In this document: positions 10,297 to 59,760 of the stretch, one piece after another
Layout: every line of letters starts with the position of its first letter
Position numbering within the stretch: position 1 is the first letter of the stretch
UHGV virus genome: UHGV-0197990
DNA from: a virus
Strand: one strand, 5' to 3'
Length of the DNA: 60,272 bases
Translations under genes and position numbers: made by a program
The notes under the pieces: generated by a model
What the model was told of the DNA's origin: nothing
Seen by the model: the letters and a program-made list of their open reading frames with translations, nothing else
Database searches by the model: none

Positions 10297-10356
10297 TGGT
10301 TTAGAATTGGCTTAGGGTGAAAACTTGGTCAATTCTTTTTTGAAGGAGAATTGATT

Positions 10357-11700
10357 ATGGGGAAAATGAATGTAGCTTACATGAGAGTTTCAACAGAAGC
10401 TCAGACAGAAAAGTACGGATTAGACGTGCAAAGGGACAAGATTCAGGACTTGGCTGACAAGAATAATGCAAAAATTGAAAGGTGGTATGTTGACGGAGGA
10501 TATTCTGGAAGTAATATTGACAGACCAGAAATGCAGAGACTTCTTGATGATGCAAGAGACGGGAAAATTTCTTCGGTGTATGTATACAAACTTGACCGAA
10601 TGAGCCGAGATGCGATTGACACACTTACTCTTCTTTACCGGACACTTCCAAAATACGGAGTAAAGATAGAATCTGTTACAGAAGAACTTAGATTTGAAAC
10701 ACCAATGGATAAAGTAATGGTCGGCGTAAATGCCATTATGGGGCAGTATGAAAGAGAAGTCATATATATGAGAACTCGTGCCGGGATGGTCGAAAGAGTC
10801 AAGAAAGGCTTGTGGATGGGAGGCGGGAATCAACCATACGGATATTACTATGACAGAAACGATGGAATACTTCATCCAAAAGAAGACGAAGCTGAAAACG
10901 TCAGAAGAATGTTTGAGATGTATAACAGCGGAATGTCTTGCAGAAGCATATCCGAAATTCTCGGAATAAAATGTGAAAAGGTTGTAAGAGATGTTTTGAG
11001 GAGAAAATCTAATATTGGATACATTGAGTATAACGGAGTGCTATACAAAGGACTGCACGAGCCAATTGTTGATGAAGATGTGTTTTGGAATACTCAAGAG
11101 CTTATAGAGCGGAGATCAAACAACTATTACCTTGCCAATAAACATATTCTTTCAGGACTATGCTTTTGCGGAAAGTGCGGCGCAAAGATGAGATACAAAA
11201 TGTGGGGCAGTTACTTTATCCTTGAGTGTTATTCCAGAGAGGGAACAAAAAAGAACATGGTGAAATCAAGTCACTGTGATAACAAAAGGAATAAAGCTTC
11301 ATATATTGAAAAAGAAGTCACTGACTGTTTCAAGAAGTTTATCATCAATGTCGAGCCAAACTCAGACAGATCAGAAAATAAAGAACTTGTTAAGAACGAG
11401 ATAAAAAAGTCGAATGAGAAGTTGAAAAGATTGTATCTTCTGTATTCTGATAGCGGAAATGATGTCCTTTTTGGAGTAATAAAAGATGAAGAAAAGCGAT
11501 TAAATTCCTTAAAAGTAAAATTAGAGGATGAAATCCGAAGAGAAAACTCAAATAAGGAATCGAAAATCAAAAGAATAAGAAAAATGTCTGACATATGGGA
11601 CGAACTTGACACTCAAGAGAAGAATAAAATTCTCAAGGAGTGTATTGAAAAGATTATTATTACGGATGATGATATAGAAATAAGATTTAATATCGAATAA
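10357..11700 (+). CDS. large serine recombinase (phage integrase type)
   Basis: N-terminal resolvase catalytic motif YMRVSTEAQ, recombinase domain and C-terminal Cys4 zinc ribbon (CFCGKCG...C). ATG 10357 preceded by GAAGGAGA. Confidence 0.9.
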   Translation: MGKMNVAYMRVSTEAQTEKYGLDVQRDKIQDLADKNNAKIERWYVDGGYSGSNIDRPEMQRLLDDARDGKISSVYVYKLDRMSRDAIDTLTLLYRTLPKYGVKIESVTEELRFETPMDKVMVGVNAIMGQYEREVIYMRTRAGMVERVKKGLWMGGGNQPYGYYYDRNDGILHPKEDEAENVRRMFEMYNSGMSCRSISEILGIKCEKVVRDVLRRKSNIGYIEYNGVLYKGLHEPIVDEDVFWNTQELIERRSNNYYLANKHILSGLCFCGKCGAKMRYKMWGSYFILECYSREGTKKNMVKSSHCDNKRNKASYIEKEVTDCFKKFIINVEPNSDRSENKELVKNEIKKSNEKLKRLYLLYSDSGNDVLFGVIKDEEKRLNSLKVKLEDEIRRENSNKESKIKRIRKMSDIWDELDTQEKNKILKECIEKIIITDDDIEIRFNIE

Positions 11701-16615: not shown

Positions 16616-17185
16616 ATGGGAAAATCAAAAAACACAGGAACAAAAATTTGCAAACATTGTCAGTCAGAAATACCAAAGAAAGCAAAGGTTTGTCCGAATT
16701 GTAGAAAGAAACAGGGTGGCAAGCTGAAATGGATTATCATTGCAATTGTAGTTATTGGAATTATCGGAGCTGCTATGGGCGGTGGTGGATCAGACGATTC
16801 CACAGCAAAGAGTGATTCAAACAGTAAAGCTGACACAGATGCTAAACAGGAAGAAACAATTGAGTATACACAGGTTTCTATCAGTGACATGGTGGATGCT
16901 CTTGACAAGAATGCAGCAGCAGCTTCTGATGAGTACAAAGACAAGTATCTTGAAATTACAGGAAAACTTTCAAATATAGATAGCGACTCATCATACATTA
17001 GCATTCTTCCTGAAGATGATGACTTTGCACTTACTGGAGTTCAGTGCTACACAAATGGAGATGAAGATATCATCAACGCTGTGAAGACTCTTTCAACTGG
17101 TGATACTATTACAGTAAGAGGAAAGTGTACAGATGTAGGAGAGGTTATGGGATACAGCCTTGACCTTGAAGAAATCGTACAGTAA
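16616..17185 (+). CDS. zinc-ribbon membrane protein with extracellular OB-fold-like domain
   Basis: CKHCQ...CPNC ribbon, one TM, then a DUF4352-like domain. Confidence 0.5.
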   Translation: MGKSKNTGTKICKHCQSEIPKKAKVCPNCRKKQGGKLKWIIIAIVVIGIIGAAMGGGGSDDSTAKSDSNSKADTDAKQEETIEYTQVSISDMVDALDKNAAAASDEYKDKYLEITGKLSNIDSDSSYISILPEDDDFALTGVQCYTNGDEDIINAVKTLSTGDTITVRGKCTDVGEVMGYSLDLEEIVQ

Positions 17186-19468: not shown

Positions 19469-19489
19469 GTTTAAAAAGGAGTGATTCCA

Positions 19490-20229
19490 TTGAAAAAATA
19501 CCAGAAAGACGCGCAAAACCGTTATAACTCAAAGTTTGATATTGTGCAAGCTAGATTACCGAAAGGAACGAAAGAGCGGATACAGAGCCTAGACTACACT
19601 ATAAACGCTTTTATCGTTGAAGCAGTAGAAACTATGCTTAAATCATTTGAAACGCCAACAGCCCCGATTTTAGAGCCTACAGAGAGCGTTTTGCAGATCG
19701 AAGAAGAGACGAAAGAGGTCGACCAGATGGCAGCAGTTGAAGTGATGCCATGGGAAGAGGGTTTTGTTGATCCTTTGTCTGAGTCAGAAGAGGAAAAGAA
19801 GAAAGAGAAATCTGCTAAATTCTTAGCTCGCAAATATGGGGAGCAAATCACTGACATTGTTATACAGAAAGACTTGATAAATACTTACAGCGTGGATATT
19901 TTGCAAAAGCGAAAGAATACGTTAAGCACCCGGAACTACTGGAAGAACCGGAACAGGAAAGCAAGCCAGAAGAAAAGGGCATTCAATCACTTGAGGAATT
20001 AAACGAAGAGCTTTCAAAGAAGAGAGCAGAAGACGCTGCTAAAATTTCCGAAGAAGAAGAACGCCGTCAAAATTACTGGAAGAATATACAAGAGTCAAAC
20101 AAAGCAGACATCGTGAACCATTTCAAAAGAATGCGAAACGGCTCTGAAATGACCGAAGAAGAGCGAAAGAAAGAAGCAGAACGGGAAGAATGGAAGAAAA
20201 AGAACAACAAGGAATTCGGCGTTTGATTC
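19490..20229 (+). pseudogene. RHH DNA-binding protein gene with an apparent -1 frame change (C-terminal half continues in another frame to 20229)
   Basis: N-terminus DIVQARLPKGTKERIQSL..INAFIVEAVETML is RHH. The frame starting at 19490 turns into a basic nonsense tail after about 19860. An overlapping frame, open 19855-20229, encodes a plausible acidic coiled-coil with no start codon. Confidence 0.4.
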
Positions 20230-20337
20230 TGTGGCTTCGCAGAATGCGCCTAGAATCGATTTGAATTGGTTTAGCCTATACTTTATTGATTGATAGTATA
20301 AAATGGATTTAAAAGGAAAATAGGAGGTGCATTGTAA

Positions 20338-20559
20338 ATGAATTTAAAAACACAAGCAGATGAAAACAAATACGTTGACGCTCTTAAAAAGTTAGTTGCC
20401 AAACAAAACAACAGGCCTTGTATGGAATGGCAATGTGGAGAATCATTAGTCAAAAGGTGCGACAAAGAGCCTTGCAAATGGTGCTGCTACTATGGTTGTT
20501 ATTGCTGTATTAATTTAGACAGATGCATTTCAAAAATATTAGGAGATGGAATAGAATAA
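20338..20559 (+). CDS. cysteine-rich small protein (11 Cys in the C-terminal 40 aa) with 27-aa N-terminal leader-like region
   Basis: RBS AGGAGGTG. CMEWQCGESLVKRCDKEPCKWCCYYGCYCCINLDRC. Confidence 0.5.
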   Translation: MNLKTQADENKYVDALKKLVAKQNNRPCMEWQCGESLVKRCDKEPCKWCCYYGCYCCINLDRCISKILGDGIE

Positions 20560-20588: not shown

Positions 20589-20615
20589 AAAAAAGATCCG
20601 GGAATTTCTCCCGGT
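20589..20615 (-). terminator. terminator for the minus-strand operon (bidirectional hairpin)
   Basis: CCGGGAatttCTCCCGG with A6 on plus strand, i.e. T6 on minus. Confidence 0.6.
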
Positions 20616-20620
20616 TCTCC

Positions 20621-21382
20621 TTATATTCCGAATAATCTATCAAAGAATCCTTTCTTTTTCGGTGGGCGCTGCTGCATCCAGTGATTAATCAAACGCCATG
20701 TTTCGCCCTTGTCATACATCGGAACAACTATTTTTTTTACTCCGCTATCTGGATTCATGTAATATGCCTGCCCATAGCGCGGTAAATCCTCGCAACCGTT
20801 AAAGCCTAGTATATTTCTGCTGTCCTGCGCTGACCTTGTACGCAGTCCCACACGGGCATCAAAGTTGACCTTGATTTCTGTTGGAATTACCTTTGCAATC
20901 GGACACTGAGTTGCACAAATTAGATGAACACCGGCGGCGCGTCCTACTTGTGCGATACGTTGGATCAGTGGCATGACTTGTTTTTTGTTCGTGGTCATTA
21001 AGTCCGCTAACTCGTCAATAATTACATATAGCTGCGCTCCATGGTATTTCTTCTCGTGTGCTCTCTGCATCTGTGTATATCTCATTTCAATGATATTCAT
21101 AGCCATCTGCAATCCTCTGACCATCTCAGCCGGTTCGGATGCGTAGAACGCCGTATGAGGAAGATATCTATAGTCTACGAGTTCCACCCTCTTCGGGTCG
21201 ATAAGAATGAACTGTACTTGTGACGGTGCCTCAAACAGTGCAGTTGTGATAATCCCATTAATTACAACCGATTTTCCTGATCCAGTAGCTCCAGCCACTA
21301 ACAAGTGTGGCTGCTCCATCATGTTCTCATATTTGACAAAACTCTTTCCCTCTGGTGTGATCCAATTTCTCTGTGCTTTCAT
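20621..21382 (-). CDS. short FtsK/SpoIIIE-family ATPase
   Basis: 253 aa. Walker A LLVAGATGSGKS, Walker B IIDELADL. RBS AAGGAG. Confidence 0.8.
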   Translation of the reverse strand: MKAQRNWITPEGKSFVKYENMMEQPHLLVAGATGSGKSVVINGIITTALFEAPSQVQFILIDPKRVELVDYRYLPHTAFYASEPAEMVRGLQMAMNIIEMRYTQMQRAHEKKYHGAQLYVIIDELADLMTTNKKQVMPLIQRIAQVGRAAGVHLICATQCPIAKVIPTEIKVNFDARVGLRTRSAQDSRNILGFNGCEDLPRYGQAYYMNPDSGVKKIVVPMYDKGETWRLINHWMQQRPPKKKGFFDRLFGI

Positions 21383-21470
21383 TGTTTTTTTCTCCTTTTC
21401 TATTTCCTGTTATTTGTATTCGTGAAACTCTCCACTCTATGCAATAGATTAATATCTTCCGGCTCAGTTC

Positions 21471-21653
21471 CTAGCTCTGCAATTCTTCGACACGTTCACA
21501 GAGTGCAATAAGTGCATCTTTGAGTGTTGCGCCTTCTTCCATCTGTTCAAGTTCTGCGGCAAGCTCTGCGACTGTCTCCTGGCGTTCTTCTTCGTTGTCG
21601 TATCCGTCAGACAATAAGTTAAAAATTAATTCCGCGATATCTCTATTTTTCAT
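21471..21653 (-). CDS. acidic hypothetical protein
   Basis: 60 aa. RBS GGAGGAC. Confidence 0.45.
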   Translation of the reverse strand: MKNRDIAELIFNLLSDGYDNEEERQETVAELAAELEQMEEGATLKDALIALCERVEELQS

Positions 21654-21674
21654 TTTCTCAAGTCCTCCGTTTTT

Positions 21675-21878
21675 CTAGTCCAATGCCTTGTCGATCGCTT
21701 CTGCTAAATGTGGGAACGCTTCTTGTACTTCCTGCATTGTGTCCGCTGTAAAGTCTCCGATTGTTTTCCCGTCCTTGTAAACATTGCCATGATAAACGCA
21801 ATCTAAATCGCTAAAGCTCCAATCTATTCCGGTTATTTCTTTTGGGTTGTTCTTGTACCACATATCAATACTAATCAT
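21675..21878 (-). CDS. hypothetical protein
   Basis: 67 aa. RBS AGGAGG. Confidence 0.45.
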   Translation of the reverse strand: MISIDMWYKNNPKEITGIDWSFSDLDCVYHGNVYKDGKTIGDFTADTMQEVQEAFPHLAEAIDKALD

Positions 21879-21935
21879 GCTATTTTCCTCCTAATCTGCT
21901 CAAGACTTCCGGGGATTGCTCCCCGGTTGTTCTAT

Positions 21936-22343
21936 CTATTTGCGTGCGCCTTTCTCAAGTTCTCTGTAAAGAAGGCTGCAAGCTAATTTCTCGGCTTTGT
22001 CCTCTGTGTATCTTGCCTTTTCTTCCTCTGTCTCTTCGAGGATGTTTCCAAGAAAGTCAATCGCTGATCTAAGAAAAATATCATCAGCAACAGGAAATGC
22101 TGTTGGAAGTCCCTGCATCCAGTCCATGAACATTTCACTTTTACTTGCTCTGCCTGCGATGTAATAACGGTTATTTTCTAACTTTTCAATTCTGAATTCC
22201 TCCAAGATGTCTGCGCAGATCTCGTTAAAATCTGTCTTTGCTTCTCTGCCTTCGAATGTGTAATATTCGTTTGCAGCCTCGTAGCTGTCCATTATCTCTT
22301 TTCTGATGTTCTCCATTGCTTTTCTGCTGTTTGTTCTTAACAT
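21936..22343 (-). CDS. hypothetical protein
   Basis: 135 aa. First gene of the minus-strand operon. Confidence 0.45.
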   Translation of the reverse strand: MLRTNSRKAMENIRKEIMDSYEAANEYYTFEGREAKTDFNEICADILEEFRIEKLENNRYYIAGRASKSEMFMDWMQGLPTAFPVADDIFLRSAIDFLGNILEETEEEKARYTEDKAEKLACSLLYRELEKGARK

Positions 22344-22576: not shown

Positions 22577-22976
22577 TTAGGCACAAATGCAATAGGCATA
22601 TTATACAAATATTAAGCACAAATACAACAGCGTTTTTGTCTATTATTTATTAAGCACAAATAAGCATTGAAAATAAGGCGTTAATATACTATAATGAAAG
22701 AAAACAGGAAGGGAGATAGAAAGATGCCAGAATATACAGAGAAGCAGAAAGAACAACGTAGAAAAGCAGTTGCGGAATATATGAAAACAGTTGATCGTGT
22801 TAATTGTCAGTTTCCACTAGGAACGAAAGAAAGAATAAAAGAGCTTACCGGGAAAAGCTGCAACGCCTTTATAAAAGAAACAATATTAAAAGAACTGGAT
22901 AAAATAGAAAGAAAGAAAGTTAAAACAAATTAAGCACAAATATTTACATTATTATATATTGACATTAGGCACAAAT
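22577..22976. promoter_or_regulatory. operator set: five 12-mers TTARGCACAAAT at 22577, 22613, 22650, 22930 and 22965, flanking RHH gene 22724-22933. Consensus promoter TTGACA-17-TATAAT at 22959-22987 with an operator in the spacer
   Basis: Exact or near-exact 12-mers, direct orientation, paired at 35-37 bp spacing. Confidence 0.6.
22724..22933 (+). CDS. ribbon-helix-helix DNA-binding protein (paralog of the 19490 RHH)
   Basis: VNCQFPLGTKERIKELTGKSCNAFIKETILKEL parallels IVQARLPKGTKERIQSLDYTINAFIVEAVETML. ATG 22724 after GGAAGGGAG. Tracked ATG 22694 sits in the -10 box. Confidence 0.55.
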   Translation: MPEYTEKQKEQRRKAVAEYMKTVDRVNCQFPLGTKERIKELTGKSCNAFIKETILKELDKIERKKVKTN

Positions 22977-29457: not shown

Positions 29458-31194
29458 ATGGCGAGCGATTATTTGATTAAAACCGTAAAAGGGTATGAAA
29501 ATTACATAGAGCGTAAAGGGATTGACGAACAGGTTCTAGATGCGTACAGAGAAGCCAGCAAAGTTGCCCTGTTTAATAACAAAGATAACGATGGATTGAA
29601 AATTTCCGGAAGAGCAAGACAGCTGTATGAGCAGTTTATAATGAACAGCACTGGCGGTACTTCATGGGATTTGGAAAAATATGCATTTGAGAACGGGACA
29701 TATTACCAAATACTTGATGATTTCTACGATCTTATTTTAGCAGAAGCAAAAAACAAGTGCGTTGATAGCTACTTCCGGTACATCGAGAAGAAAAGAGAAC
29801 CAAAAGAGCGATTTTACATGCCTAGAAGAAAGCAATTTCTGAAAATCGGTCTTGTAGATGGCTTACAAGGAATGCTTGATGACAAGTACGATATGCTCTT
29901 GATTTCCCTCATACCCGGCGCTGGGAAAACTTCAATAGAGAAATTTTTCCTCAGCGGAGTCATTGGATGGTACCCAAAAGACTTCAATTTGTTCTATTCG
30001 CATAGCAGCGACATCACAAGAATGTTCTATGATGGCGAACTGGATATTGTAAAGAATCTAGGGGAGTATTGCTGGCATGATATATTTCCGAATTTGGCTG
30101 TTTCTGGAGAAAATGCGAAGATGGAGCAGTTCAATGTTGGAAAATACAAACCGTTCCCATCTGTTCAGTGCACATCTGTTGGTAGTAAGAATGCCGGAAA
30201 AGTACGTGCTTCTAAGTTTCTACTTGTTGATGATATGATCGGTGGAATCGAAGAGGCGTTAAACAGGAATATTCTTGATAAATTGTGGGACAAATACGCC
30301 GTAGATGCCCGTCAGAGAAAGATTCAGGACACAGACGGGAATAACTGCAAGGAAATTCATATAGCGACTAGATGGAGCGTACACGATGTAATAGGACGTA
30401 TTCAAAAGATGTATGAGGGTAATAACCGTGTAAAAACAATTGCGGTGCCAGACATTGATCCGAAAACAGGAAAAAGCAACTTTGATTATGAGTATAGCGG
30501 TTTTACTGTGGAATTCTTTGAAGACCAGCAATTACTCATGGACGATGTGTCATACAGATGTCTTTACAAACAGGAGCCAATTGAAAGAGAAGGACTTCTG
30601 TTCCCAGAAGAAAAGACAAGGCGGTATCTGAATTTGCCACATGGAGCACCGGAAATCATCACTGCTCAATGTGATACAAAAGGAAAAGGAACGGACTATT
30701 TTGTGCTTCCAGTCTTGCAGAAGTACGGAGAAGACTATTATTGTGTTGATTGCGTTTGCGATAATACAGCAGATTACGAATTACAGTATGAGAATGCATC
30801 AAACATCATTGTTGATAATCAGGTTCAAGAGTGTGAATTTGAGCGAAATGCCGGAGGAGACAGAGTAGCACTGGAAGTTAATAAGCGAGTAGAGCAAAAA
30901 GGATGGATATGCAATATTACGGATACTCCTACGGAAACGAACAAAGAAGCAAGAATCTATCAGTGCTCAAGCTGGATTTTACAGCACGTAATATTTAAGG
31001 ATTCTTCACTTTATACGCCAAAAGAGCCGTATGGAGTAATGATGAGTCTTTTGACAAGATATTCTGTTTCAGATAAAAAGCAGCTTGACGATGTACCGGA
31101 CGTTTTTTCAAACTTCGCTATAAGAATGACGGCAGGGACAAGAGAAGCAAAAGTCGAAGCGGTACACAATCCGTTTAGAGGAGGTTATAGATAA
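29458..31194 (+). CDS. terL: terminase large subunit
   Basis: 578 aa. Walker A-like ISLIPGAGKTS, ATPase and nuclease domains. Classical position before the portal. Confidence 0.9.
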   Translation: MASDYLIKTVKGYENYIERKGIDEQVLDAYREASKVALFNNKDNDGLKISGRARQLYEQFIMNSTGGTSWDLEKYAFENGTYYQILDDFYDLILAEAKNKCVDSYFRYIEKKREPKERFYMPRRKQFLKIGLVDGLQGMLDDKYDMLLISLIPGAGKTSIEKFFLSGVIGWYPKDFNLFYSHSSDITRMFYDGELDIVKNLGEYCWHDIFPNLAVSGENAKMEQFNVGKYKPFPSVQCTSVGSKNAGKVRASKFLLVDDMIGGIEEALNRNILDKLWDKYAVDARQRKIQDTDGNNCKEIHIATRWSVHDVIGRIQKMYEGNNRVKTIAVPDIDPKTGKSNFDYEYSGFTVEFFEDQQLLMDDVSYRCLYKQEPIEREGLLFPEEKTRRYLNLPHGAPEIITAQCDTKGKGTDYFVLPVLQKYGEDYYCVDCVCDNTADYELQYENASNIIVDNQVQECEFERNAGGDRVALEVNKRVEQKGWICNITDTPTETNKEARIYQCSSWILQHVIFKDSSLYTPKEPYGVMMSLLTRYSVSDKKQLDDVPDVFSNFAIRMTAGTREAKVEAVHNPFRGGYR

Positions 31195-40050: not shown

Positions 40051-43000
40051 ATGGGAACAGAGGTGGACTCTCTTGAGGTAAAAGTTGAAGCTTCAGCTAA
40101 GTCAGCAAATGCTAGTTTGACTAATTTGGCAAAAAGATTAGGTGATGTATCGAAACAGCTTCAATCTGTTTGCTCTTATCAACCAACAATAGATGCACTT
40201 ACTGGAAATCTCGATGGTATTTCTAAACTTGATTTTAAAAATGTAAAAGATTTAAAGAATGCTATTAAGACAATGTCCAAAGATATGGCAAGAATCAATG
40301 GACGGCAAATTAAAATCAGCGTAAACAAGCTTGGAGATGTAGAAAAAGCCGCAGAGAAAGTGACAGCCCTTTCAGAAAAAGTTGCAGAAGCATCAAAAAG
40401 CATAAAAATTTCCGTTGATTCTTCTGAGGTTAATTCAGCAAAAAAAGCTTGCGATGAACTGAAAAAGAAAACTTCCGGTTTAAAAGCAAGTGCTCAGACC
40501 ATCAAAAAGGCAAGCGGACAACTTGGTGCATCTGATGGTAAATCCGTATTGAGCGGAGCAGAAACGAGACAAAGATTTTCGAGCATCGGCCCAGATAAAG
40601 ACAAAGGAATTGCTGAAGAAGAGACAAAAGAAGCGTCTAAGCTTTCAAAGATTCTTTCAGGCACTCAGAAAGTTTCAAAATCTCTTTCTAATACGTTCGG
40701 GAAGATGGGGAAAACAGTTAGTGGCGTAGTTTCTAAAGCAAAAGATCTCAAGAATTTGATTACCAGAACAAACAAATCTGGTGGTCAAATGTCAATGGGA
40801 AGAATGCTTGGAATGTCACTTGTATTTTCCACTGTATTTTCAGCATTAAGCGCAATAAATAATGCTATTAAAGAGGGTTCCAACAATCTTGTTCAATACA
40901 GTTCTGATTACAACAAGAGCATTTCGGGCATTGCCACATCTCTTCTGTATTTGAAGAATGCATGGGCGGCGGCTTTTGCTCCGATTATCAATGTAGTCGG
41001 ACCGTATATTTCAGCATTTATTGATATGCTCGCCAATGCAATGAATAAGGTCGCGCAGTTCATGGCTGTATTGACTGGAAAAACAGCAGTTGTTCAAGCA
41101 AAAAAAGCATGGAAAGACTACGGAAAAACACTAACATCAACTGGAAGTAGTGCTAAAAAAGCTGGAAGTGATGCGGCAAAAGCAGCAAAAGACCTTGAGA
41201 ACTATACTCTTGGAATTGATGAACTAAATGTGATCCAGCCGACAACATCAAGCTCAAGTTCAAGTGGTGGATCTGACGGAAGTTCCGGTGCTTATACGGG
41301 ACCAGATGTTTCGGAGATGTTTGAGACAATAGAACCAACTAAAGCGATCTCTGATTATGCTAAACGACTCAGAGAAGCATTCAAATCTCAAGACTGGACT
41401 TCTCTAGGATCAATCATGGCAGAGGGCGTAAATGCCGGAATGCAGAAATTATATGACATATTTGACTGGAATAAGCATGGGAAAAAGATAACTTATTTCT
41501 GCAATGCTTTTACCACAACAATGAATAGCCTTGTTGACAATATTGAATGGCCGTTAATGGGGGCTACTGTTGCTGCCGGAGTGAATACGGTCTTTAATAC
41601 TGCGCAGCTTTTGATTACCGGGTTTAACTGGACGAATCTTGGAACAGGAATCGGAACAGCTATTTCAACAGGAATTCAAAACATTGACTGGGGGACGATA
41701 GGATACACTCTCGGAGCGTATTTTATGATTTCTTGGAACACCCTTGTTGGGACTCTGAGAGAGCTTAAAGGTGAAGACACTGGAATGGCGTTGGCTGATG
41801 CTTTTAACGGTGCGTTAGATTCTATCAATATTGGAACAATCGGAGAATCCATCGGAAGAATGGTTGCTCTTGTAATAGAGTCAATTAGAACATTTATTCA
41901 GAATGCCAATTGGAAAGAGCTTGGATCACAGATTATTGAGGGAATAAAGAATGCTTTCAAGTTTGCTTCTGATGGTGGCGAAAATACAGGAATACTTGCA
42001 TCGGTTATTGGAATCGGAGCAACAGGTGAAATCACAAAGAAAATAGCTGAAATTCTTCCCAAATTAGATGGAATGGCAGAAAAATTCAATAAAATAAAGG
42101 AAGTAGCAGGAAAGTTAAACTTTAAATCTCTTATTACATTATCTCCAACAACTTTATTGATTGTTGCCGGAATTACAATTTTAGCTGCTGAACTCATGGA
42201 CTTGTGGAAAACTTCTGATGGATTCAGAGATGCTGTAAAAAATGCTGTTGGGGAAATTGGAAGTGCTTTTTCTTATGCGAAAAAAGAAATTTGGGATAAC
42301 GGATTTAAACCGCTTTGGGAGAACCTAAAAGAACTGTTTAATTCTATTTACGATTTATATGAATCAAGTGGAGCGAAAGAGCTGTTCGAATCAACAATGA
42401 TTGCCGCAGTGAAAGCAATTGGGGCATTACTTTCCATAATAATCAAAAGAATAGCACAAGTTGTTTCTACTATTACCGGAATGGTGAGTGGAGCGATAAA
42501 GATAATTCAAGGTTTAATTACATTTGTGACAGGTGCATTTACTGGAGATTGGGGAAAGGCTTGGAAAGGAGTAGAAGATATTGCGCTTGGATTTAAGCAA
42601 TATATTTCATCTTTATTCCAATTGCTTTTCGGAACAATTACAGCGATTTTCTCACCAATTGCTCAGTGGTTCTCGAAAAAATTTCAAGCTGCTAGAGACG
42701 GTGTAACGAATGCATTTTCTGATGTTGGGAAATGGTTCTCAGCTAAGAATACAGACATCCAAAATGGAATGAAGAGCATAAGTTCTTGGTTTGGAACGAA
42801 ATTTAAAAGCGCACGTTCATTGACAAATGCAGCATTTTCAAACATCGGTTCTTGGTTTGGTCAAAAACGTGAGGATATCAAGTCAAATATGAAGCCAATT
42901 GCTCAGTGGTTCAAGGATATTTTTAATTCTGCCTACAACGGAATTACTTCAATTTTTGACAAGATTGGTGGGTACTTCAACACGGTAGCTGGATGGATTA

Positions 43001-44253
43001 AATCACCTGTTTTAGGCGCAGTAAAAGCAATTGCTAATGCTGTGAACTGGGTTTACGACAAATTAGGTGGAAACGGCGATTTGATTGACGTATCGAATCT
43101 TGATAAATACGCAAGCGGTACAAACGGAGTCGCAAGAGATTCCTTTGGTGTTGTCAATGACCAGTCAGGAAATACCTACAGAGAACTTGTCCAGTATCCG
43201 AACGGACAGACTGTAATTCCAACAGGAAGAAATGTAGTTCTCCCGATGCCAAAAGGTACAAAGGTAATGCCAGCTGGTCAAACAGCAGCATTAATGGGAA
43301 TTACTGGCGTAAAGAAGTATAAATCTGGAATCGGTAATTTCTTTGGAAGTACAGCAGACAAAATCAGCGATATTGCAAGTAACATTTTCAGTTACATCAA
43401 AGAACCGAAGAAGCTTCTTAAAGCGGCAATTGATAAATTCACAGATTTGACAGGAGCACTTGAGCCTGGAATCACAATTGCGAAGACGGCAGTTAATTCA
43501 CTGTTTGAAACAGCAGTTTCCAAAATCAAAGGGTTCTTTGACAGTTTCGGTGCTGTTGATTACAAACCATCTGCCGGAGTGGAGCAGTGGAGAGGACTTG
43601 CGAAACAAGCTCTTTTACTGACAAATCAGTTCAGCGAATCCAATCTGAATGCCTTGTTAACTCAGATGATGCATGAGTCGGGTGGAAATCCGAACGCTAT
43701 CAACAACTGGGATATCAACGCAATCAGAGGTATTCCGTCAAAAGGACTGATGCAGGTAATTGACCCGACATTCCGTGCAAATGCGATGGCTGGATTCAAC
43801 ACAAACATATACGATCCACTGTCAAACATGATCGCCGCCATCAATTACACAGTCAAAAGATACGGAAGTCTGTATGCTGGATGGACTGCACGTGGATACA
43901 AAGGATACGCAAACGGTATCGGTACATTCAAGCTGTCTGATATGGTCGGGAAATATTCTGTAGGTGGATTCCCTCAGAATGGCGAGCTGTTTGTGGCGAA
44001 TGAGAAAGCACCGGAATACGTTGGAAGAATGGGAAATAGAAATGTGGTTGCCAATAACAATCAGATTGTGACCGGAGTATCCAACGGAGTTGCAGAAGCG
44101 AATAAAAATACAGAAAGACTTTTACAGAAGCTTATCGAGCAGAATGAGAGACTTCTTAGAAAGAATACATCACTGATGATGAACAGTAAGAAAGTAAATA
44201 AGGAACTGTCAAGGGGAAGTAGAAACTCTGGATACAGTTTCAGTACAACATAG
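40051..44253 (+). CDS. tape measure protein with C-terminal lytic transglycosylase (SLT) domain
   Basis: 1400 aa. SLT motif MMHESGGNPNAI...GLMQV. Confidence 0.9.
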   Translation: MGTEVDSLEVKVEASAKSANASLTNLAKRLGDVSKQLQSVCSYQPTIDALTGNLDGISKLDFKNVKDLKNAIKTMSKDMARINGRQIKISVNKLGDVEKAAEKVTALSEKVAEASKSIKISVDSSEVNSAKKACDELKKKTSGLKASAQTIKKASGQLGASDGKSVLSGAETRQRFSSIGPDKDKGIAEEETKEASKLSKILSGTQKVSKSLSNTFGKMGKTVSGVVSKAKDLKNLITRTNKSGGQMSMGRMLGMSLVFSTVFSALSAINNAIKEGSNNLVQYSSDYNKSISGIATSLLYLKNAWAAAFAPIINVVGPYISAFIDMLANAMNKVAQFMAVLTGKTAVVQAKKAWKDYGKTLTSTGSSAKKAGSDAAKAAKDLENYTLGIDELNVIQPTTSSSSSSGGSDGSSGAYTGPDVSEMFETIEPTKAISDYAKRLREAFKSQDWTSLGSIMAEGVNAGMQKLYDIFDWNKHGKKITYFCNAFTTTMNSLVDNIEWPLMGATVAAGVNTVFNTAQLLITGFNWTNLGTGIGTAISTGIQNIDWGTIGYTLGAYFMISWNTLVGTLRELKGEDTGMALADAFNGALDSINIGTIGESIGRMVALVIESIRTFIQNANWKELGSQIIEGIKNAFKFASDGGENTGILASVIGIGATGEITKKIAEILPKLDGMAEKFNKIKEVAGKLNFKSLITLSPTTLLIVAGITILAAELMDLWKTSDGFRDAVKNAVGEIGSAFSYAKKEIWDNGFKPLWENLKELFNSIYDLYESSGAKELFESTMIAAVKAIGALLSIIIKRIAQVVSTITGMVSGAIKIIQGLITFVTGAFTGDWGKAWKGVEDIALGFKQYISSLFQLLFGTITAIFSPIAQWFSKKFQAARDGVTNAFSDVGKWFSAKNTDIQNGMKSISSWFGTKFKSARSLTNAAFSNIGSWFGQKREDIKSNMKPIAQWFKDIFNSAYNGITSIFDKIGGYFNTVAGWIKSPVLGAVKAIANAVNWVYDKLGGNGDLIDVSNLDKYASGTNGVARDSFGVVNDQSGNTYRELVQYPNGQTVIPTGRNVVLPMPKGTKVMPAGQTAALMGITGVKKYKSGIGNFFGSTADKISDIASNIFSYIKEPKKLLKAAIDKFTDLTGALEPGITIAKTAVNSLFETAVSKIKGFFDSFGAVDYKPSAGVEQWRGLAKQALLLTNQFSESNLNALLTQMMHESGGNPNAINNWDINAIRGIPSKGLMQVIDPTFRANAMAGFNTNIYDPLSNMIAAINYTVKRYGSLYAGWTARGYKGYANGIGTFKLSDMVGKYSVGGFPQNGELFVANEKAPEYVGRMGNRNVVANNNQIVTGVSNGVAEANKNTERLLQKLIEQNERLLRKNTSLMMNSKKVNKELSRGSRNSGYSFSTT

Positions 44254-47820: not shown

Positions 47821-48132
47821 ATGAGAACATTAAAATTCAACGTAAAAGAGCAGAGGATAGAGAAAGCAAAGAACTGTGATTTTAGTGATATCGCAAGAGG
47901 GACAACGGGATATTTGAAAGCACAGTTTTCTTTTTCCTCTGACTGGAACGGATACGCAAAGATAGCTGTTTTCAATGATGCATGGGACAAAGTAGAAGAG
48001 TACAGACCAATTATTGGTAATGAGTGCGAAATCCCGTCAAAAGTTCTTGACAGCATCTCATTCAAAGTAAGGGTTATCGGCGTATCAGAGGGAAGAAGAC
48101 TCACCACGAACAGAACGGAGGTGGAGCAGTGA
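47821..48132 (+). CDS. hypothetical tail protein
   Basis: 103 aa. Confidence 0.4.
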   Translation: MRTLKFNVKEQRIEKAKNCDFSDIARGTTGYLKAQFSFSSDWNGYAKIAVFNDAWDKVEEYRPIIGNECEIPSKVLDSISFKVRVIGVSEGRRLTTNRTEVEQ

Positions 48133-48704
48133 CAGAGCAAGAAGCATTAGCTGTAGCATTGGCAGAACAGGAGCTTGTAAAGCCGGTCAATGACATTCTG
48201 ATGATTGACCCGGAGACAAGGACGATTAATGTTCCTGATTCAGAAAGACTTTTCGGTGTGCAGTCAGATGAAAAGGCTGAAAGAAAGTATTTCAAGTGTC
48301 CGAAAATCGTTGGAAACAACATCAATCTTGCGACCATGAATCTGTACATCAACTACAAAAGTCCGAATCAAGCAGATGAAGAGGGAGACTCCTACATTGT
48401 ACAAGATGTTGTGACAAGCGGAGACTACATCACATTTTCTTGGGTTCTTGGTCGAAATGTAACAAAATATACAGACGGAATTCACTTCTCTGTCTGCGCC
48501 AAAAAGTCAAACTCAGATGGCACTCTTACGACAGAGTGGAACACAACATGGGCTGAGGGAGAAGTCCTTGAGGGATTGGAAACTACTCAGCAGATCGCGG
48601 AAAAGAACAAGGATTTAATTGAGCAGCTATTGAACACCTACGATTCCAAAGTAGCTGTGAAGCTGGAATTCGACCCGTCAACCCGTGGCATATCTATTGT
48701 TTAA
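48129..48704 (+). CDS. hypothetical tail protein with DP(E/S)TR.I motifs near both termini
   Basis: GTG start overlaps the upstream stop. MIDPETRTINV ... FDPSTRGISIV. Confidence 0.4.
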   Translation: MTEQEALAVALAEQELVKPVNDILMIDPETRTINVPDSERLFGVQSDEKAERKYFKCPKIVGNNINLATMNLYINYKSPNQADEEGDSYIVQDVVTSGDYITFSWVLGRNVTKYTDGIHFSVCAKKSNSDGTLTTEWNTTWAEGEVLEGLETTQQIAEKNKDLIEQLLNTYDSKVAVKLEFDPSTRGISIV

Positions 48705-48716
48705 GGAGGGAGAATT

Positions 48717-48884
48717 ATGGCACTGAAAGCAGAAGACGTATTGGCGATTGTCAATGAAAAAATAAAGAATCCTGTCACTCAAGAACAAGTGACAACAGCT
48801 GTCAACGAGTATCTCAAAGAAAATCCAGTTACCGCAGGAACAGCAACATACAACCCAGAGACAAGAGGAATCACGATTGAGTAA
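48717..48884 (+). CDS. small protein (55 aa) ending in the same NPETRGITIE motif
   Basis: RBS AAGGAGGGAG. Below the track cutoff. Confidence 0.35.
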   Translation: MALKAEDVLAIVNEKIKNPVTQEQVTTAVNEYLKENPVTAGTATYNPETRGITIE

Positions 48885-48895
48885 GGAGGTACGAC

Positions 48896-50830
48896 ATGGC
48901 AACGAGTGATATTGGAAAAGGTGCATTTTTAAATGTAAAGAACAAAGACACGGGTGAAATCGAAAAGAAAACCCTGATTCCTCCGGCTCCTTCTGATGGT
49001 GATTTGGGTGGAATTTCGGAAGAAGAGTTGGCGCAGATCACAACAAACAAAGAAAAAATCAGTTCACTAAATGTGGAACTTATAGACGGAAGAACGGATG
49101 TAGATGGAGAAGTTCATAAAAACATTGGAGATGCCATGAGAGGTCAGACAAGAAAACTAAGAGAAAATCTCGTTGTCCGTCAGAAAGAACAGCCAACAGA
49201 CCCGAACAATAATGTATGGATCTCAGATGAAGATGATGAGGTGGAAGTGCCGGATATGGGGGAATTTAATTCTCTCAAGGAAGATATGGACTACCAAGTT
49301 GATAAGTTTAGTATTATCAAATTTTTAGATAAAGTAATCTTATCAGGTAAATTAATAAAAACAGATGGAACGATTGACACAGTAGGTGGAGCATATAACC
49401 TAGTTAAAGTAAATGTGTTAAATGAACCAAGAATACACGTTAAAGGCAATATTCTTCAAAAAGTTGGGGCATCCTATGAATATGTTTCATATGCTTTTGT
49501 TGACAATTCTGGCACTGTGATTGATTACACTGAATTTGATACTGAAAAAAGTGTTGACGAATGGTTGGAGTGTCCTAATAATTCAGCGTATGTTCTATTT
49601 AGTGTTGAAACAAATTCGCTTAATGACTTTGAATTATACTTATACAGTTCAACCAGTGAAGAACTTGATAAAAAAGAAAATAAATCATCTGTGCAAAATA
49701 TTAAGGATGATATTTCTTTGATTGATTCTGTCAAAAAATATCTCATAAGTGGAAACACGAAAGTTGATTATAATTTCGTTGTTGGTGAGACGTTTAAAGA
49801 TTTCAGAACAAAAGTTCATAACATTATCAAAAATTTCAAATGCCAATTATATGACGACATTGTTTATCAGTGGCAAATGAAAACAACAAATAATTTCGCA
49901 CATGAGTATGGTACAAATATTCAATTATCTATTGGACACATTGATGAAAAAGGAAATATTGAATATTATGCACAAAATATTTTAGCATTGACTAATTTTT
50001 CCCATCCGAATATGTCAAATGCAAACTATATAAGGATTGATTATACAGACACTTGGAGTAATGTTGCTGATAACCAATCAATAGATTATATCAATATTTT
50101 TCAATTAAGCGATGGAGACAATTATAGTGGATTCTTTCTTACAGATTGTAAACCATTGACTAACTACTGGCATAATAAAATAGGCGATAGCATTGGCGAT
50201 AGTATAACAGGTCAAGGATTTTTTCAGAAATATGTGAAAAACTACTTTGGATTACAGTATTTTTATAATCATGGTATCGGCGGAACGAAAATGAGCGGTG
50301 GAACTACTGAACATGGTGATGCTATGTGGATGGATAGCAGAGTAAATGCTTTATCACCATATGCAGATTTTATTACAGTAATGGGCGGTCAGAATGATAC
50401 TAATGTGGAAATCGGAAATGTCGATATTTCTAACAGTGATACTGATACATATTGTGGTGCTTTTAATGTATTGATTAGCAAACTTTTGTATAAGTATTGT
50501 AAATGTACTGGTTATTATTCAGGAATTGATTACAGTGGTATAACACAGATTGATATTGCAAAGTACGTAACTGTTATTCCTATGACACCATTCTATGTTC
50601 CTAATACAACATCGAAACTTGAAGAAAAGGCAGATGCTATCAGAAAGCTATCACAGATGTGGTCTTTGAAGATTGCAGATTTAAAATCAGAATGTGGTTC
50701 CAACTTTGGTGTTGCTGATATATATTGGGAAACTGATAGAACACATCCGTTAGAGTCATTCCATAGAGATAGGATTGCACCAATTATTATCAGTGTTATG
50801 GAAAATAATAAACCTGTTGTATTTAACTAA
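48896..50830 (+). CDS. tail fiber/receptor-binding protein with C-terminal SGNH (GDSL) esterase domain
   Basis: 644 aa. SGNH blocks GDSITGQG, GGQND, DRTHP. The gene is conspicuously AT-rich. Confidence 0.7.
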   Translation: MATSDIGKGAFLNVKNKDTGEIEKKTLIPPAPSDGDLGGISEEELAQITTNKEKISSLNVELIDGRTDVDGEVHKNIGDAMRGQTRKLRENLVVRQKEQPTDPNNNVWISDEDDEVEVPDMGEFNSLKEDMDYQVDKFSIIKFLDKVILSGKLIKTDGTIDTVGGAYNLVKVNVLNEPRIHVKGNILQKVGASYEYVSYAFVDNSGTVIDYTEFDTEKSVDEWLECPNNSAYVLFSVETNSLNDFELYLYSSTSEELDKKENKSSVQNIKDDISLIDSVKKYLISGNTKVDYNFVVGETFKDFRTKVHNIIKNFKCQLYDDIVYQWQMKTTNNFAHEYGTNIQLSIGHIDEKGNIEYYAQNILALTNFSHPNMSNANYIRIDYTDTWSNVADNQSIDYINIFQLSDGDNYSGFFLTDCKPLTNYWHNKIGDSIGDSITGQGFFQKYVKNYFGLQYFYNHGIGGTKMSGGTTEHGDAMWMDSRVNALSPYADFITVMGGQNDTNVEIGNVDISNSDTDTYCGAFNVLISKLLYKYCKCTGYYSGIDYSGITQIDIAKYVTVIPMTPFYVPNTTSKLEEKADAIRKLSQMWSLKIADLKSECGSNFGVADIYWETDRTHPLESFHRDRIAPIIISVMENNKPVVFN

Positions 50831-50922
50831 AGAGGGCATAGAGCAAAAATTAGGAGAGGCTAATATCTCTCTTTTTCTATGCAAAAATTTAGTAAACAAA
50901 CCGCAGAAAGGAGAAACCACAC

Positions 50923-52650
50923 ATGAGTGTATTCATAAAGAAATCAAAACTAAGAGTAAAAAATGAAGACGGAACAAGCTATACAGGAGTAATGAATGCC
51001 ATAGCAGAAGAGAGTACAGAAGAATTAATCAAGCAGATCGAAGCCAAGGGAAAGAAGACACTTGAGAGCATCCCAGAGGATTATACAGTGCTGGAAGAGA
51101 AGGTGGATAAACTAAAGGAAGAGATGGCGAATGTAAAGTCTGTAACAGATACCATTGATGAGAGAATCCTTGAGGCATTCTTCGGGTCAATGAGAAATGG
51201 AAAAGTATATCAGACAGAAGTGTATCTGACAGAAACAAACCCAACCTCTGACGGTGTCAAAACTCTTGCTAATGCGAACATGGTATGCGAACCATCAACG
51301 GATACCGTAGAGGGCAGAGATGACTACGAGGGCATTGGAATTTTCAACTGGTATAAATGCAACTACATTACAGATGATTACGGTCGCAAGATTCCGACAG
51401 CAATCGAGGGATGGGGAAATGGTTATAAGAATGATGAATCTGTTGACGTTGGTGTTATTGCAATGACTCCGTACTGGTCGGCTATTGAGAAAGATGGTAA
51501 ACAGATCTGGACATTATCCGATACTCCGAATGATGATTACGGGTTGATTCCGTGGGAGACAGCTAGAAAAGAAGATGGCACTTACGCTTCTTATGTGATT
51601 CACAGCGAGTACGTCAGTGGACTTGGAACGGATGGACTTCTTAGGTCATTTAGCGGTTCTAAACCAGCTAGAAATCAGTGTTACGACAACATGATTGACA
51701 GCTATCAGAGAAAAGGTAAAGGCTGTTATGGTGCCGGAAAAGAAAGAGATATGTATGTCATTCTGTACGAAGTGATTAAGTATGCTACGAAGAATGAGCA
51801 GAAGATCTTTAAAGGAACAACAAGCTACAACTTGCAGTTTTCAGCTTCAATTCAGAGAGAAACGAAAGAAACCTACTTCCCACTCACAAATTCACAGGCT
51901 TCGCAGATTGTTGTTGGAAGCTATGTGTCTGTTGGGTATGGTTCAAAGAACACTGACAATACGGTAAATAACGACCGTGGAGTTGGCACGATTCACCAGT
52001 ACGCTGACGATGTAAAAGTCCTTAGAATTGAGGATATTGACGAAAATAACAAGGCTGTATATTTAGATATTGAAGAGGGATTCACGACAACACCAGTAGC
52101 GTTAAGTGATACTCTGAATGCACAGATTATGTTGTCCACTATGCATTGGCGGAGTGGAACAACAGATAAGGTAATCGGGAAGCATGACGGTTCAATGGGC
52201 TCCAATACAGATGGAAAACATCCATTCCGTGTCATGGGAATTGAATGTTCTGTAGGTGGATACATCGTATATTCGGATTCGGTCATGGTATTTAAGGAAG
52301 ATTACAGCAAGGACGTATATATTGCTCCTAGAGGTGTCAAACATGTAAAAGATGAAGCGACCATCAAGAGCACATACAAGCTGATTGGAAATATGCCTGG
52401 AAATGGCGGAACTGACTGGTGGATTGGCGATATCGGAGTGGACATGGAAACTTGTTCATGGTTCGCCAAAGCTGTCGGAAAGAGCGATTCTCAAGGTTGG
52501 GGTGATAGATGTTACGCTGGCGGTAAGAGTACATCTGGAACTCGCGAAGACCTCGGGCGCGGTGCTCTCTGGTCTGGGTCGGGTGGCGGCTCGGTGTGCG
52601 TGTTTTGCTGGCTCGGGCTTGGCGGGGCGCTCTGGGCTTCCCTCGGCTGA
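50923..52650 (+). CDS. tail fiber-like protein, candidate DGR target. The C-terminal 97 nt are adenine-free
   Basis: 575 aa. Immediately upstream of a DGR-type RT. 52551-52647 contain no A. Followed by GNRA-loop hairpins. Confidence 0.6.
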   Translation: MSVFIKKSKLRVKNEDGTSYTGVMNAIAEESTEELIKQIEAKGKKTLESIPEDYTVLEEKVDKLKEEMANVKSVTDTIDERILEAFFGSMRNGKVYQTEVYLTETNPTSDGVKTLANANMVCEPSTDTVEGRDDYEGIGIFNWYKCNYITDDYGRKIPTAIEGWGNGYKNDESVDVGVIAMTPYWSAIEKDGKQIWTLSDTPNDDYGLIPWETARKEDGTYASYVIHSEYVSGLGTDGLLRSFSGSKPARNQCYDNMIDSYQRKGKGCYGAGKERDMYVILYEVIKYATKNEQKIFKGTTSYNLQFSASIQRETKETYFPLTNSQASQIVVGSYVSVGYGSKNTDNTVNNDRGVGTIHQYADDVKVLRIEDIDENNKAVYLDIEEGFTTTPVALSDTLNAQIMLSTMHWRSGTTDKVIGKHDGSMGSNTDGKHPFRVMGIECSVGGYIVYSDSVMVFKEDYSKDVYIAPRGVKHVKDEATIKSTYKLIGNMPGNGGTDWWIGDIGVDMETCSWFAKAVGKSDSQGWGDRCYAGGKSTSGTREDLGRGALWSGSGGGSVCVFCWLGLGGALWASLG

Positions 52651-52689
52651 AATTGTTAATTTCTAAATATAAAATCCTTGCGTCGTATT

Positions 52690-52725
52690 TCGCACTCGCA
52701 AAGAGTGTAGTCTGTAAAGACTCTT
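52690..52725 (+). promoter_or_regulatory. two adjacent GNRA-type hairpins (CACTC-gcaaa-GAGTG and AGTCT-gtaa-AGACT) about 45 nt downstream of the target gene stop
   Basis: Perfect 5-bp stems. Location analogous to the DGR target-recognition hairpin. Confidence 0.4.
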
Positions 52726-52857
52726 GGACAGATGCCCGAAATACTTTTTATAGACCTACTGAAACTTTTATTTTTGACGAAAGGAGTAAGGACGGATAGG
52801 GTTAGCCTATCTGTCGGGGTTAGTAGCACAAACCGAAAGCCCTTAAAAAGACAATCG

Positions 52858-54054: not shown

Positions 54055-54337
54055 ACAGATTGACGGAATAGATTATATCTATATCTGTCTGAATGAGAAC
54101 ATCGTGAAAGAGATTCCTGAAGGACAGGAAGAGGGGCAGACTTATCATGAATATGATTATAGGGAAATCTCAGAGCCTACCGGCATTCTCGATTTGGACG
54201 ATGTAAAAGCTAACCCAGGTAAGTACCTTAACTATGAGAATGAGGTCAGGACGGATACAGAACGTATCGACACATTAGAAGCAACTACAGACGATATCAT
54301 CTTAATGATGGCTGATTTGATTGGAGGAAAAGCATAA
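54011..54337 (+). CDS. acidic hypothetical protein
   Basis: 108 aa. Overlaps the RT 3' end. RBS AAGGGAG. Confidence 0.45.
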   Translation: MKARFDTTQESVTVRQIDGIDYIYICLNENIVKEIPEGQEEGQTYHEYDYREISEPTGILDLDDVKANPGKYLNYENEVRTDTERIDTLEATTDDIILMMADLIGGKA

Positions 54338-54489
54338 TGAAAACATTGAACACACTGAAACTTAAAATCATGGTAAGAGCATTTAGAATCAGACTTAAAA
54401 ACGGAGAAGAGTTTGATGATATTGCAGCGGATTATCCAGCACTCACAGTAGACGACCTTGAGGCAATTCGTGAGGCACTGGAAAAGTAA
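54337..54489 (+). CDS. small hypothetical protein (50 aa)
   Basis: TAATG overlap. RBS GGAGGA. Confidence 0.3.
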   Translation: MKTLNTLKLKIMVRAFRIRLKNGEEFDDIAADYPALTVDDLEAIREALEK

Positions 54490-54669
54490 TGGAATTAGGA
54501 AACATGACAATCTCGGAATTGATTGAATTACTGCATGAAATCACTAATGAAATCGAGTCGAGAACGATGGAATTAAGCGGCTAAGAGGTAAATACATGGA
54601 AATCAGAGCAAGACCGAAAGGTCTTATTTTTATACTTAAAACAATAATGAAACAGAAGGGAGAATAATC

Positions 54670-59757: not shown

Positions 59758-59760
59758 ACC

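Follow-up and report, generated by a model that had tools for sequence, protein, structure and literature searches.

A small cysteine-rich protein encoded by a temperate phage

The virus genome UHGV-0197990, a stretch of 60,272 nucleotides (nt) referred to here in its whole length as the window, carries a small gene for a cysteine-rich protein of 73 amino acids (aa) (MNLKTQADENKYVDALKKLVAKQNNRPCMEWQCGESLVKRCDKEPCKWCCYYGCYCCINLDRCISKILGDGIE), here called the Cys gene. The open reading frame (ORF) encodes a genuine conserved phage gene that is under purifying selection. Its product is, as judged from comparison of sequences, most likely a small protein that binds metal inside the cell and represents an undescribed family, rather than a secreted toxin, a bacteriocin, or a modified peptide. 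The original prediction, which was made from the letters of the window and a list of its ORFs, had offered a disulfide-rich secreted toxin or bacteriocin, a ribosomally synthesized and posttranslationally modified peptide (RiPP)-like product, or a metal-binding regulator. The 73-aa ORF that it proposed was borne out by the ORF list and translation, and the strong ribosome-binding site that it ascribed to the gene corresponds to an AGGAGG Shine-Dalgarno sequence (Table 1). Its count of 11 cysteines within 36 residues was incorrect, as the quoted stretch holds 10, at residues 28, 33, 41, 46, 49, 50, 54, 56, 57, and 63. The only CxxC spacings in the protein are C46-x2-C49 and C54-x2-C57, and five aromatic residues lie within residues 28 to 63.

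Cysteine richness by itself is not significant in the window (39% G+C), because spurious antisense ORFs reach 12 to 21% cysteine; it is conservation that identifies the ORF as real. Fifteen close homologs with identities of 63 to 95% were identified, all of them metagenomic. Cysteine spacing in homologs had been suggested as a check, and all 10 cysteines were found to be unchanged, with their spacing kept, across 13 full-length homologs. Among 14 copies of the gene, TGT and TGC were exchanged at 9 of the 10 cysteine codons with retention of the residue. Pairwise ratios of nonsynonymous to synonymous substitution (dN/dS) ranged from 0.15 to 0.33, and the corresponding pooled polymorphism ratio (pN/pS) was 0.36 for the whole ORF, 0.24 for the cysteine core, 0.40 for residues 1 to 27, and ∼1.4 for the last 10 residues.

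A phage-restricted family with two subfamilies

No family match was obtained from Pfam, NCBIfam, PHROGs, or PADLOC for the 73-aa protein or for the paralog described below, and matches below threshold in the family libraries were limited to Docking, Ral, Fer2, and BBS7_hp. With E values of up to 10, NCBIfam returned no families for the 73-aa protein, SCIFF included, and sequence-profile searches of the PDB gave only chance matches (E values above 1). No cultured phage matched by DNA or tblastn, and the gene was found in none of the 185,579 species genomes of GTDB; 12 viral contigs in IMG/VR carry it. An exhaustive hidden Markov model (HMM) search of 1.84 billion representatives identified four true clusters, which comprised a full-length divergent protein (P0016) and three fragments. 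Two large proteins matched by the HMM (2479 and 1218 aa) were rejected as false positives driven by repeats. Every homolog-bearing locus examined was a phage contig. The motifs of the 73-aa family were absent from the literature searched, and keyword searches gave no relevant result.

A 76-aa paralog with eight or nine cysteines (for example, MINKHPSQKDIEQERIKGAINILLKRHNNLPCLKWECRNGNCLARKHKDCGRECQFFSCLGCKYVSECVGEITKVQ) is present at most loci of one of the two phage backbones that carry the gene (backbone b; see below), and one phage is able to carry two family members, the 73-aa homolog and the 76-aa paralog. The paralog has its own small set of relatives, and comparison of the two sets identified them as homologous subfamilies (hhalign probability, 93%; E value, 2.5e−7; 62 columns). 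In the joint alignment, L19, P27, C28, C33, C49, C54, C57, and C63 were invariant and W31, C41, and C46 were nearly so. The eight core cysteines common to both subfamilies are those at positions 28, 33, 41, 46, 49, 54, 57, and 63, while C50 and C56 are specific to the subfamily of the window. The family signature consists of an N-terminal helix, an [NS]-x-P-C-x2-[WF]-x-C motif, and an eight-cysteine core ending in C-x4-C-x2-C-x5-C.

By these comparisons, the family is a phage-restricted orphan with two subfamilies that was previously undescribed. Its kind is well known, as these proteins are to be counted among the small cysteine-rich, probably metal-binding accessory proteins of phages, and within that kind the family is new. 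By the membership tests run, it is not a member of the Ral, Lar/zinc-ribbon, WhiB, SCIFF, metallothionein, or leader-type bacteriocin families. Lar (PF14354; restriction alleviation; Rac prophage) and the small zinc-ribbon phage proteins are similar to it in being 60 to 75 aa long, cysteine dependent, and phage borne. They differ in having two knuckle pairs, whereas the family has eight to eleven cysteines and one or two CxxC knuckles, and in forming a beta-ribbon, whereas the model of the 73-aa protein is predicted, at low confidence, to be helical. Pfam gave no zinc-ribbon, Lar, or Ogr match for the 73-aa protein. A metallothionein was rejected on the five aromatic residues within the cysteine core, the conserved (predicted) N-terminal helix, and the lack of a Pfam match.

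A cytoplasmic, metal-held protein as the favored reading

The N-terminal 27 residues of the 73-aa protein include five lysines, one arginine, and three acidic residues. Hydrophobic runs do not exceed three residues, the highest 15-residue Kyte-Doolittle mean over the first 30 residues is −0.37, and no double-glycine-type site (GG, GA, or GS) occurs in the N-terminal segment. AlphaFold modeled residues 6 to 22 as a helix, with a predicted local distance difference test (pLDDT) score of about 73 to 76. Given the lack of a hydrophobic core and of a GG, GA, or GS site, and the modeled helix, the N terminus is not considered a signal peptide or a double-glycine leader. The original description of this segment as a 27-aa lysine-rich leader thus stands as to the five lysines and fails as to the leader. 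In one family member, P0029, the N-terminal helix is exchanged for a longer, highly basic extension that does not resemble a RiPP leader.

Family members carry 8, 9, 10, or 11 cysteines, with odd numbers in L009, P0013, P0016, P0022, P0027, and L018. Members of the paralog subfamily have cysteines at two or more of three middle positions, in any combination; P0016 has a cysteine at position 48 in place of 50, and in L018 the noncore C56 is replaced by tyrosine. A variable cysteine count with interchangeable middle positions is more in keeping with ligation of a metal (Zn or Fe-S) than with a fixed disulfide knot. Taken with the absence of an export signal and a host that is probably a strict anaerobe, this argues for a cytoplasmic protein with two putative tetra-cysteine metal sites. 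Conserved phage homologs lacking secretion or leader features, which the original prediction had set against its own toxin proposal, are largely what was found. Of the options that it gave, the metal-binding regulator is the best fit to the natural cysteine variation and the lack of secretion features, both the binding and the regulation being inferred.

Under this reading, the product would be a small cytoplasmic protein in which an amphipathic helix at the N terminus precedes a compact domain, the latter being held together by metal ions on the eight core cysteines. These could form two tetra-cysteine sites, for Zn(II) or an Fe-S cluster, accompanied by two or three extra cysteines specific to each subfamily. 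The protein would be expressed from the rightward early block of the phage and would act in the infected cell, where it would bind DNA or a protein of either host or phage. Its specific function would most likely lie in DNA transactions, as restriction alleviation or a different role in host takeover, and this is favored because of the DNA-metabolism and restriction-evasion genes that neighbor it on backbone b and the weak likeness of its last four cysteines to those of lambda Ral.

Lambda Ral (PF11058; 66 aa), of lambdoid phages, is likewise a small protein made from an early accessory gene in a temperate phage, and it speeds first-strand methylation by type IA restriction-modification (R-M) enzymes (PMC12707154). 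A closer relationship can be envisaged, in which the C-terminal Cys4 module of the family would be homologous to Ral and would bind a type I R-M system of the host at its methyltransferase core, switching that core to efficient de novo methylation and so protecting incoming phage DNA. Ral was the sole Pfam family matched by several members (3 of 18), always through residues 54 to 69 or 71 of the paralog and profile positions 12 to 27 or 29. Using hhalign, the paralog subfamily aligned with Ral (QFFSCLGCKYVSECVGE versus QFKRCNGCKLQSECMVK) with a probability of 71% (P = 3.7e−5; 53% identity over 17 columns), and both subfamilies jointly (A3) did so with a probability of 22% (P = 1e−3). In this alignment, Ral C11, C17, C20, and C26 correspond to the family-invariant C49, C54, C57, and C63. 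The Ral module (W-C-x5-C-x2-C-x5-C-[MV]-x-K) is alignable with that of the family (W/F-C-x4-C-x2-C-x5-C-[VI]-x-K), and CLGCKYVSEC of the paralog matches CNGCKLQSEC of Ral. When the columns of the Ral profile were shuffled, the observed score was reached in 0 of 300 profiles for the paralog subfamily and in 1 of 300 for the combined family. On backbone b, the next gene downstream in L007 and L008 is of the Lar-like restriction-alleviation type, and in L002 to L005 a gene for an orphan N6 methyltransferase lies two genes upstream.

Set against homology with Ral, the Pfam scores were 7.5 to 10 bits where the cutoff is 25 (E values, 0.67 to 4.1), and the protein of the window itself gave no match. 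The module is N-terminal in Ral but lies at the opposite end in the 73-aa protein, where it follows the helix and four more conserved cysteines. The conserved C-terminal two-thirds of Ral, a stretch of 40 residues (PEEM...DGKxVDKWAIRTTAMIAREL), has no counterpart in the 73-aa protein, which ends 10 residues past its last cysteine. The organism-named Ral relatives that were found are from Enterobacterales only, whereas the host of the window phage is probably a Firmicute. The last four invariant cysteines weakly point to Ral, as a lead and not as membership. Restriction alleviation of the Ral type is considered unlikely, albeit the first of the alternatives to be kept in mind, and somewhat less credence is given to common descent of the Cys4 module with that of lambda Ral in a metal-stabilized factor by which phages of gut Lachnospiraceae would counter restriction or take over the host.

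Several observations weigh against the metal-held protein and the function suggested for it. The AlphaFold2 models were of low confidence, with a pLDDT of 61 from a 13-row alignment and 59 from an 18-row alignment, and the cysteine core fell below 50 with the deeper alignment. Foldseek searches of the PDB and BFVD returned nothing below an E value of 5 and were uninformative. A disulfide-rich fold would likewise accommodate the five aromatic residues and the CC pairs, and in formal terms a conserved N-terminal helix ahead of a cysteine-rich core could also be that of a leader-core peptide. With regard to Ral, the similarity spans just 15 to 20 residues, and the subfamily of the window, when compared alone, had an hhalign probability of 0.1. 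Moreover, Ral was picked post hoc from 24,736 Pfam families, its best E value was 0.67, and the match could be one of chance or composition; the association with Lar and methyltransferase genes occurs in one of the two backbones only. On the sequence evidence as a whole, a phage accessory gene for a cytoplasmic, metal-held cysteine protein acting inside the infected cell appears to be the best explanation overall and is put forward with moderate confidence.

Alternative explanations

The metal could instead be part of an Fe-S cluster in a redox-sensitive regulator that works in the manner of WhiB. The invariant C-x4-C-x2-C-x5-C would then bind [4Fe-4S], and the partner would be a component of host transcription or DNA repair. 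The C49-x4-C54-x2-C57-x5-C63 spacing is invariant in both subfamilies, and a C-Xn-C-X2-C-X5-C pattern occurs in WhiB-like (Wbl; PF02467) proteins, in Endo III/MutY, and in AddB/Cas4 nucleases. Wbl proteins, among them WhiB of actinophage TM4, are also small and can be encoded by phages, the probable host here is a strict anaerobe of the Lachnospiraceae, and one family member has a weak Fer2 match (E value, 0.033). That match, however, is below threshold, involves another part of the protein, and is confined to the single member. Wbl proteins are actinobacterial, and no sequence similarity to them was found; with E values of up to 10 and 18 members searched, Pfam gave no match to WhiB or to any 4Fe-4S family. 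The GVWGG turn of Wbl proteins (G[VI]WGG) and a basic tail are likewise missing. Fe-S regulation of this type is therefore regarded as quite unlikely.

The proposal of a secreted disulfide-rich toxin or bacteriocin was not upheld. Pfam annotation covered loci L001 to L008, with which the neighborhoods of L009 to L020 are syntenic, together with the larger ORFs of the window (all those of at least 250 aa except the 1400-aa ORF in Table 1) and selected smaller ones. No ABC exporter, immunity gene, or thiol-disulfide oxidoreductase was recognized among these, and the protein has no Sec, Tat, or double-glycine leader. A toxin or bacteriocin without a signal peptide could still be freed when the phage lyses the cell, and 10 cysteines per 36 residues, CC pairs, and aromatic residues, in the product of an accessory gene that passes from one phage backbone to another, would be in keeping with such a protein. 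The odd cysteine counts and shifting cysteine positions are a poor fit to a fixed disulfide framework, though, and the gene sits in early/replication modules, away from the lysis genes, in a phage whose inferred host and habitat are anaerobic. Such a toxin is accordingly rated as very unlikely.

Hardly more can be said for a RiPP precursor of the ranthipeptide or sactipeptide-like type, in which the N-terminal helix would be a leader for a maturase whose gene lies in another place, such as the host genome. Both subfamilies share the N-terminal helix and an NNxPC junction, the cysteine-rich part diverges more, and two precursor-like genes can occur within one phage. SCIFF, ranthipeptide, and sactipeptide precursors of Clostridia are similarly short, with a conserved N-terminal part and a cysteine-rich C-terminal part, and SCIFF-type precursors occur in Firmicutes, to which the host of the window phage probably belongs. 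They are, however, defined by an adjacent radical-SAM/SPASM maturase, and none occurs at the loci of the Cys gene. The radical-SAM signature CxxxCxxC was absent from ORFs of at least 200 aa across 21 neighborhoods of up to 16 kb, and no maturase family was identified by Pfam among the larger window ORFs or in L001 to L008. The original observation that no maturase is adjacent consequently holds for the whole window and 20 related loci. No protease or exporter was found, and the 73-aa protein is longer than SCIFF-type precursors, is rich in aromatic residues, and matched no precursor family in NCBIfam, such as SCIFF, or in Pfam. The pN/pS values given above place the stronger conservation in the core and not in the supposed leader, and P0029 has its long basic extension in place of the N terminus. 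The RiPP-like product that had been predicted is thus not supported and is, by a small step, the least probable of the explanations considered.

Flanking DNA and the FtsK-like neighbor

The intergenic leader upstream of the Cys gene (Table 1) is ∼94% identical among related loci, whereas the synonymous sites of the adjacent ORF differ by 43%, which points to a conserved noncoding element. A 14-nt direct repeat (20301 to 20314 and 20336 to 20349) copies the first codons of the Cys gene. No σ70 consensus was found upstream of the gene, and Rfam gave no match in the 111-nt leader, with only subthreshold matches in or past the 3′ end of the ORF. Two further candidates were rejected. A predicted helix sequestering the Shine-Dalgarno sequence (z = −2.6) had no support from covariation, as natural variants break pairs without compensation, and a 6-codon mini-ORF created by the 14-nt repeat has lost its ATG in L010.

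A G+C-rich hairpin downstream of the Cys gene is unchanged in relatives save for a one-base loop deletion in 2 of 7 loci. Since its proper T-tract is on the minus strand, the hairpin would first of all terminate the convergent FtsK-like gene, and it may also stop the plus-strand transcript of the Cys gene. The terminator that had been attributed to the Cys gene is therefore a real hairpin, which appears to belong primarily to the FtsK-like gene and is perhaps bidirectional.

The FtsK-like gene converges with the Cys gene at all loci of backbone a and is missing from backbone b. The ATPase is considered a neighbor of the Cys gene and not a demonstrated partner. The possibility that the 73-aa protein is a type VII secretion system/WXG-type substrate of this ATPase was rejected on two grounds: conservation in ‘WQCG’ does not extend to the G, and backbone b has no FtsK-like gene. 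The ATPase, which has a single domain, belongs to a minus-strand cluster of four genes (20621 to 22343) that breaks the plus-strand genome, the others being ORFans of 60, 67, and 135 aa. PADLOC found it to resemble the FtsK-like parts of SspH and mad8 (E values, 1e−24 to 1e−28), and the cluster may be a prophage-borne defense or exclusion module.

TABLE 1 Positions of the Cys gene, its parts, and other features (window coordinates unless a locus is named)
Feature	Position	Strand	Description
Cys gene	20338..20559	+	73 aa; ATG start, stop codon included; from ORF list and translation
Shine-Dalgarno sequence	20322..20327	+	AGGAGG, 10 nt before ATG; unchanged in five related loci
N-terminal segment, residues 1-27	20338..20418	+	Hydrophilic, Lys-rich helix with NNRP end; kept in both subfamilies
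Cysteine core, residues 28-63	20419..20526	+	C-x4-C-x7-C-x4-C-x2-CC-x3-C-x-CC-x5-C
Ral-like stretch, residues 47-66	20476..20535	+	KWC-CYYGCYCCINLDRCISK; weakly alignable with QWCGQFKRCNGCKLQSECMVK, the Cys4 module at the N terminus of lambda Ral
Conserved intergenic leader	20227..20337	+	111 nt; 94% mean column identity in five loci
G+C-rich hairpin	20598..20614	both	CCGGGAATTTCTCCCGG; terminator-like on both strands, better T-tract on minus strand
FtsK/SpoIIIE-like ATPase	20621..21382	−	253 aa; Pfam PF01580, E value 4.8e−33; phrog_1358
Serine recombinase	10351..11700		
Large terminase	29458..31194		
Presumed tape-measure ORF	40051..44253		1400 aa; presumed from expected position
76-aa paralog	L002:10213-10443		Eight or nine Cys; ∼2 kb downstream of the homolog; also in L007, L008, L012, L013, L014, and L016

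Phage backbones and host

The window is the genome of a temperate siphovirus-type phage. Genes upstream of the Cys gene encode a PDDEXK nuclease, SSB, replication-initiation proteins, and a serine recombinase, followed by Bro/Ant, a Sie-like protein, and Rha, and the Cys gene is the last of this rightward early/regulatory block. Past it are the minus-strand cluster, small early/late genes, and the genes for the large terminase, an SPP1-type portal, and the major capsid protein. The window further encodes tail proteins, a reverse transcriptase, a GH25 lysin, and two helix-turn-helix repressors.

Clustering of the neighborhoods of 21 loci revealed that two unrelated phage backbones carry the gene, which is therefore a mobile accessory gene. 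In backbone a (the window, L001, L006, L009, L010, L015, L019, and L020), a gene for a protein of ∼250 aa is followed by the Cys gene converging on the FtsK-like gene. Backbone b (L002 to L005, L007, L008, L011, L013, L014, L016, and L017) includes a DnaE-type polymerase, RecA, and an N6 methyltransferase; there the homolog directly follows the gene for a RuvC-like 204-aa protein and is itself followed by a Lar-type gene or a 199-aa ORFan. Within this backbone, L004 (479 to 3199) and L005 have an intact DnaE-type polymerase III alpha gene (906 aa), whose counterpart in L002 (209 to 2781) and L007 (5 to 3870) is split around a LAGLIDADG_3 ORF, which points to insertion of a homing endonuclease.

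The closest terminases (73 to 83% identity) were from an isolate of Lachnospira intestinalis, from Lachnospiraceae and Agathobacter metagenome-assembled genomes, and from short contigs binned as Bacteroidaceae. Based on the isolate and the Lachnospiraceae terminase matches, the host is probably a member of the gut Lachnospiraceae. The flanks that were fetched for prophages with a 74 to 83% identical terminase, one of which is in L. intestinalis, contained no Cys gene.

Some other genes of the window were also noted. The gene directly upstream of the conserved leader (19481 to 20226) is frameshifted, giving ORFs of 173 aa (19481 to 20002) and 37 aa (20113 to 20226), while its orthologs are intact (244 to 253 aa) in nine loci, including L001, L006, L009, L010, L015, and L018 to L020. 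The frame switches near 19900 to 19915, for which a sequencing error, decay into a pseudogene, and a programmed shift are possible causes. The N terminus of the upstream protein resembles a 79-aa protein encoded at 22694 to 22933, and both match phrog_31631 and phrog_13890. A 189-aa protein encoded at 16616 to 17185 (plus strand) matches the superinfection-exclusion family phrog_8545; it combines a zinc ribbon at the N terminus (CxxC...CxxC) with a probable membrane segment and an OB domain of the tRNA_anti-like type. A reverse transcriptase gene (52732 to 54054, plus strand; RVT_1; E value, 4.9e−15) lies between the tail genes (575-aa ORF, 50923 to 52650) and the GH25 lysin gene. Such a position is suggestive of a diversity-generating retroelement. 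Direct repeats of the template/variable type with a length of at least 40 nt were not found in 48000 to 55500. Finally, a second small cysteine-rich ORF (59900 to 60085, plus strand; 61 aa with nine cysteines, CTCCGC...CEDC) has a weak match to phrog_10625 (E value, 0.003) and is overlapped on the opposite strand by a 153-aa ORF (59694 to 60155); either could be the gene.

Significance of the family

At present the Cys gene adds one more uncharacterized small protein to those of phages, and as it represents neither a toxin nor a natural-product locus, it is to be dropped from lists used in mining for bacteriocins and RiPPs. The similarity to Ral, a lead rather than a result, offers one concrete testable function, and the proteins of the family, at ∼70 residues, are small enough for biochemistry and nuclear magnetic resonance. 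If the lead proved true, Ral-type restriction alleviation would be extended from enterobacterial relatives to phages of Firmicutes, the minimal functional module of Ral would be defined, and the two paralogs of one phage might target different host systems. If the reading favored here holds, these proteins would make up a compact Cys8 metal-binding domain family that is new, is restricted to phages infecting abundant Firmicutes of the human gut, and moves between unrelated phage backbones, as accessory genes do that often serve in counterdefense or host takeover.

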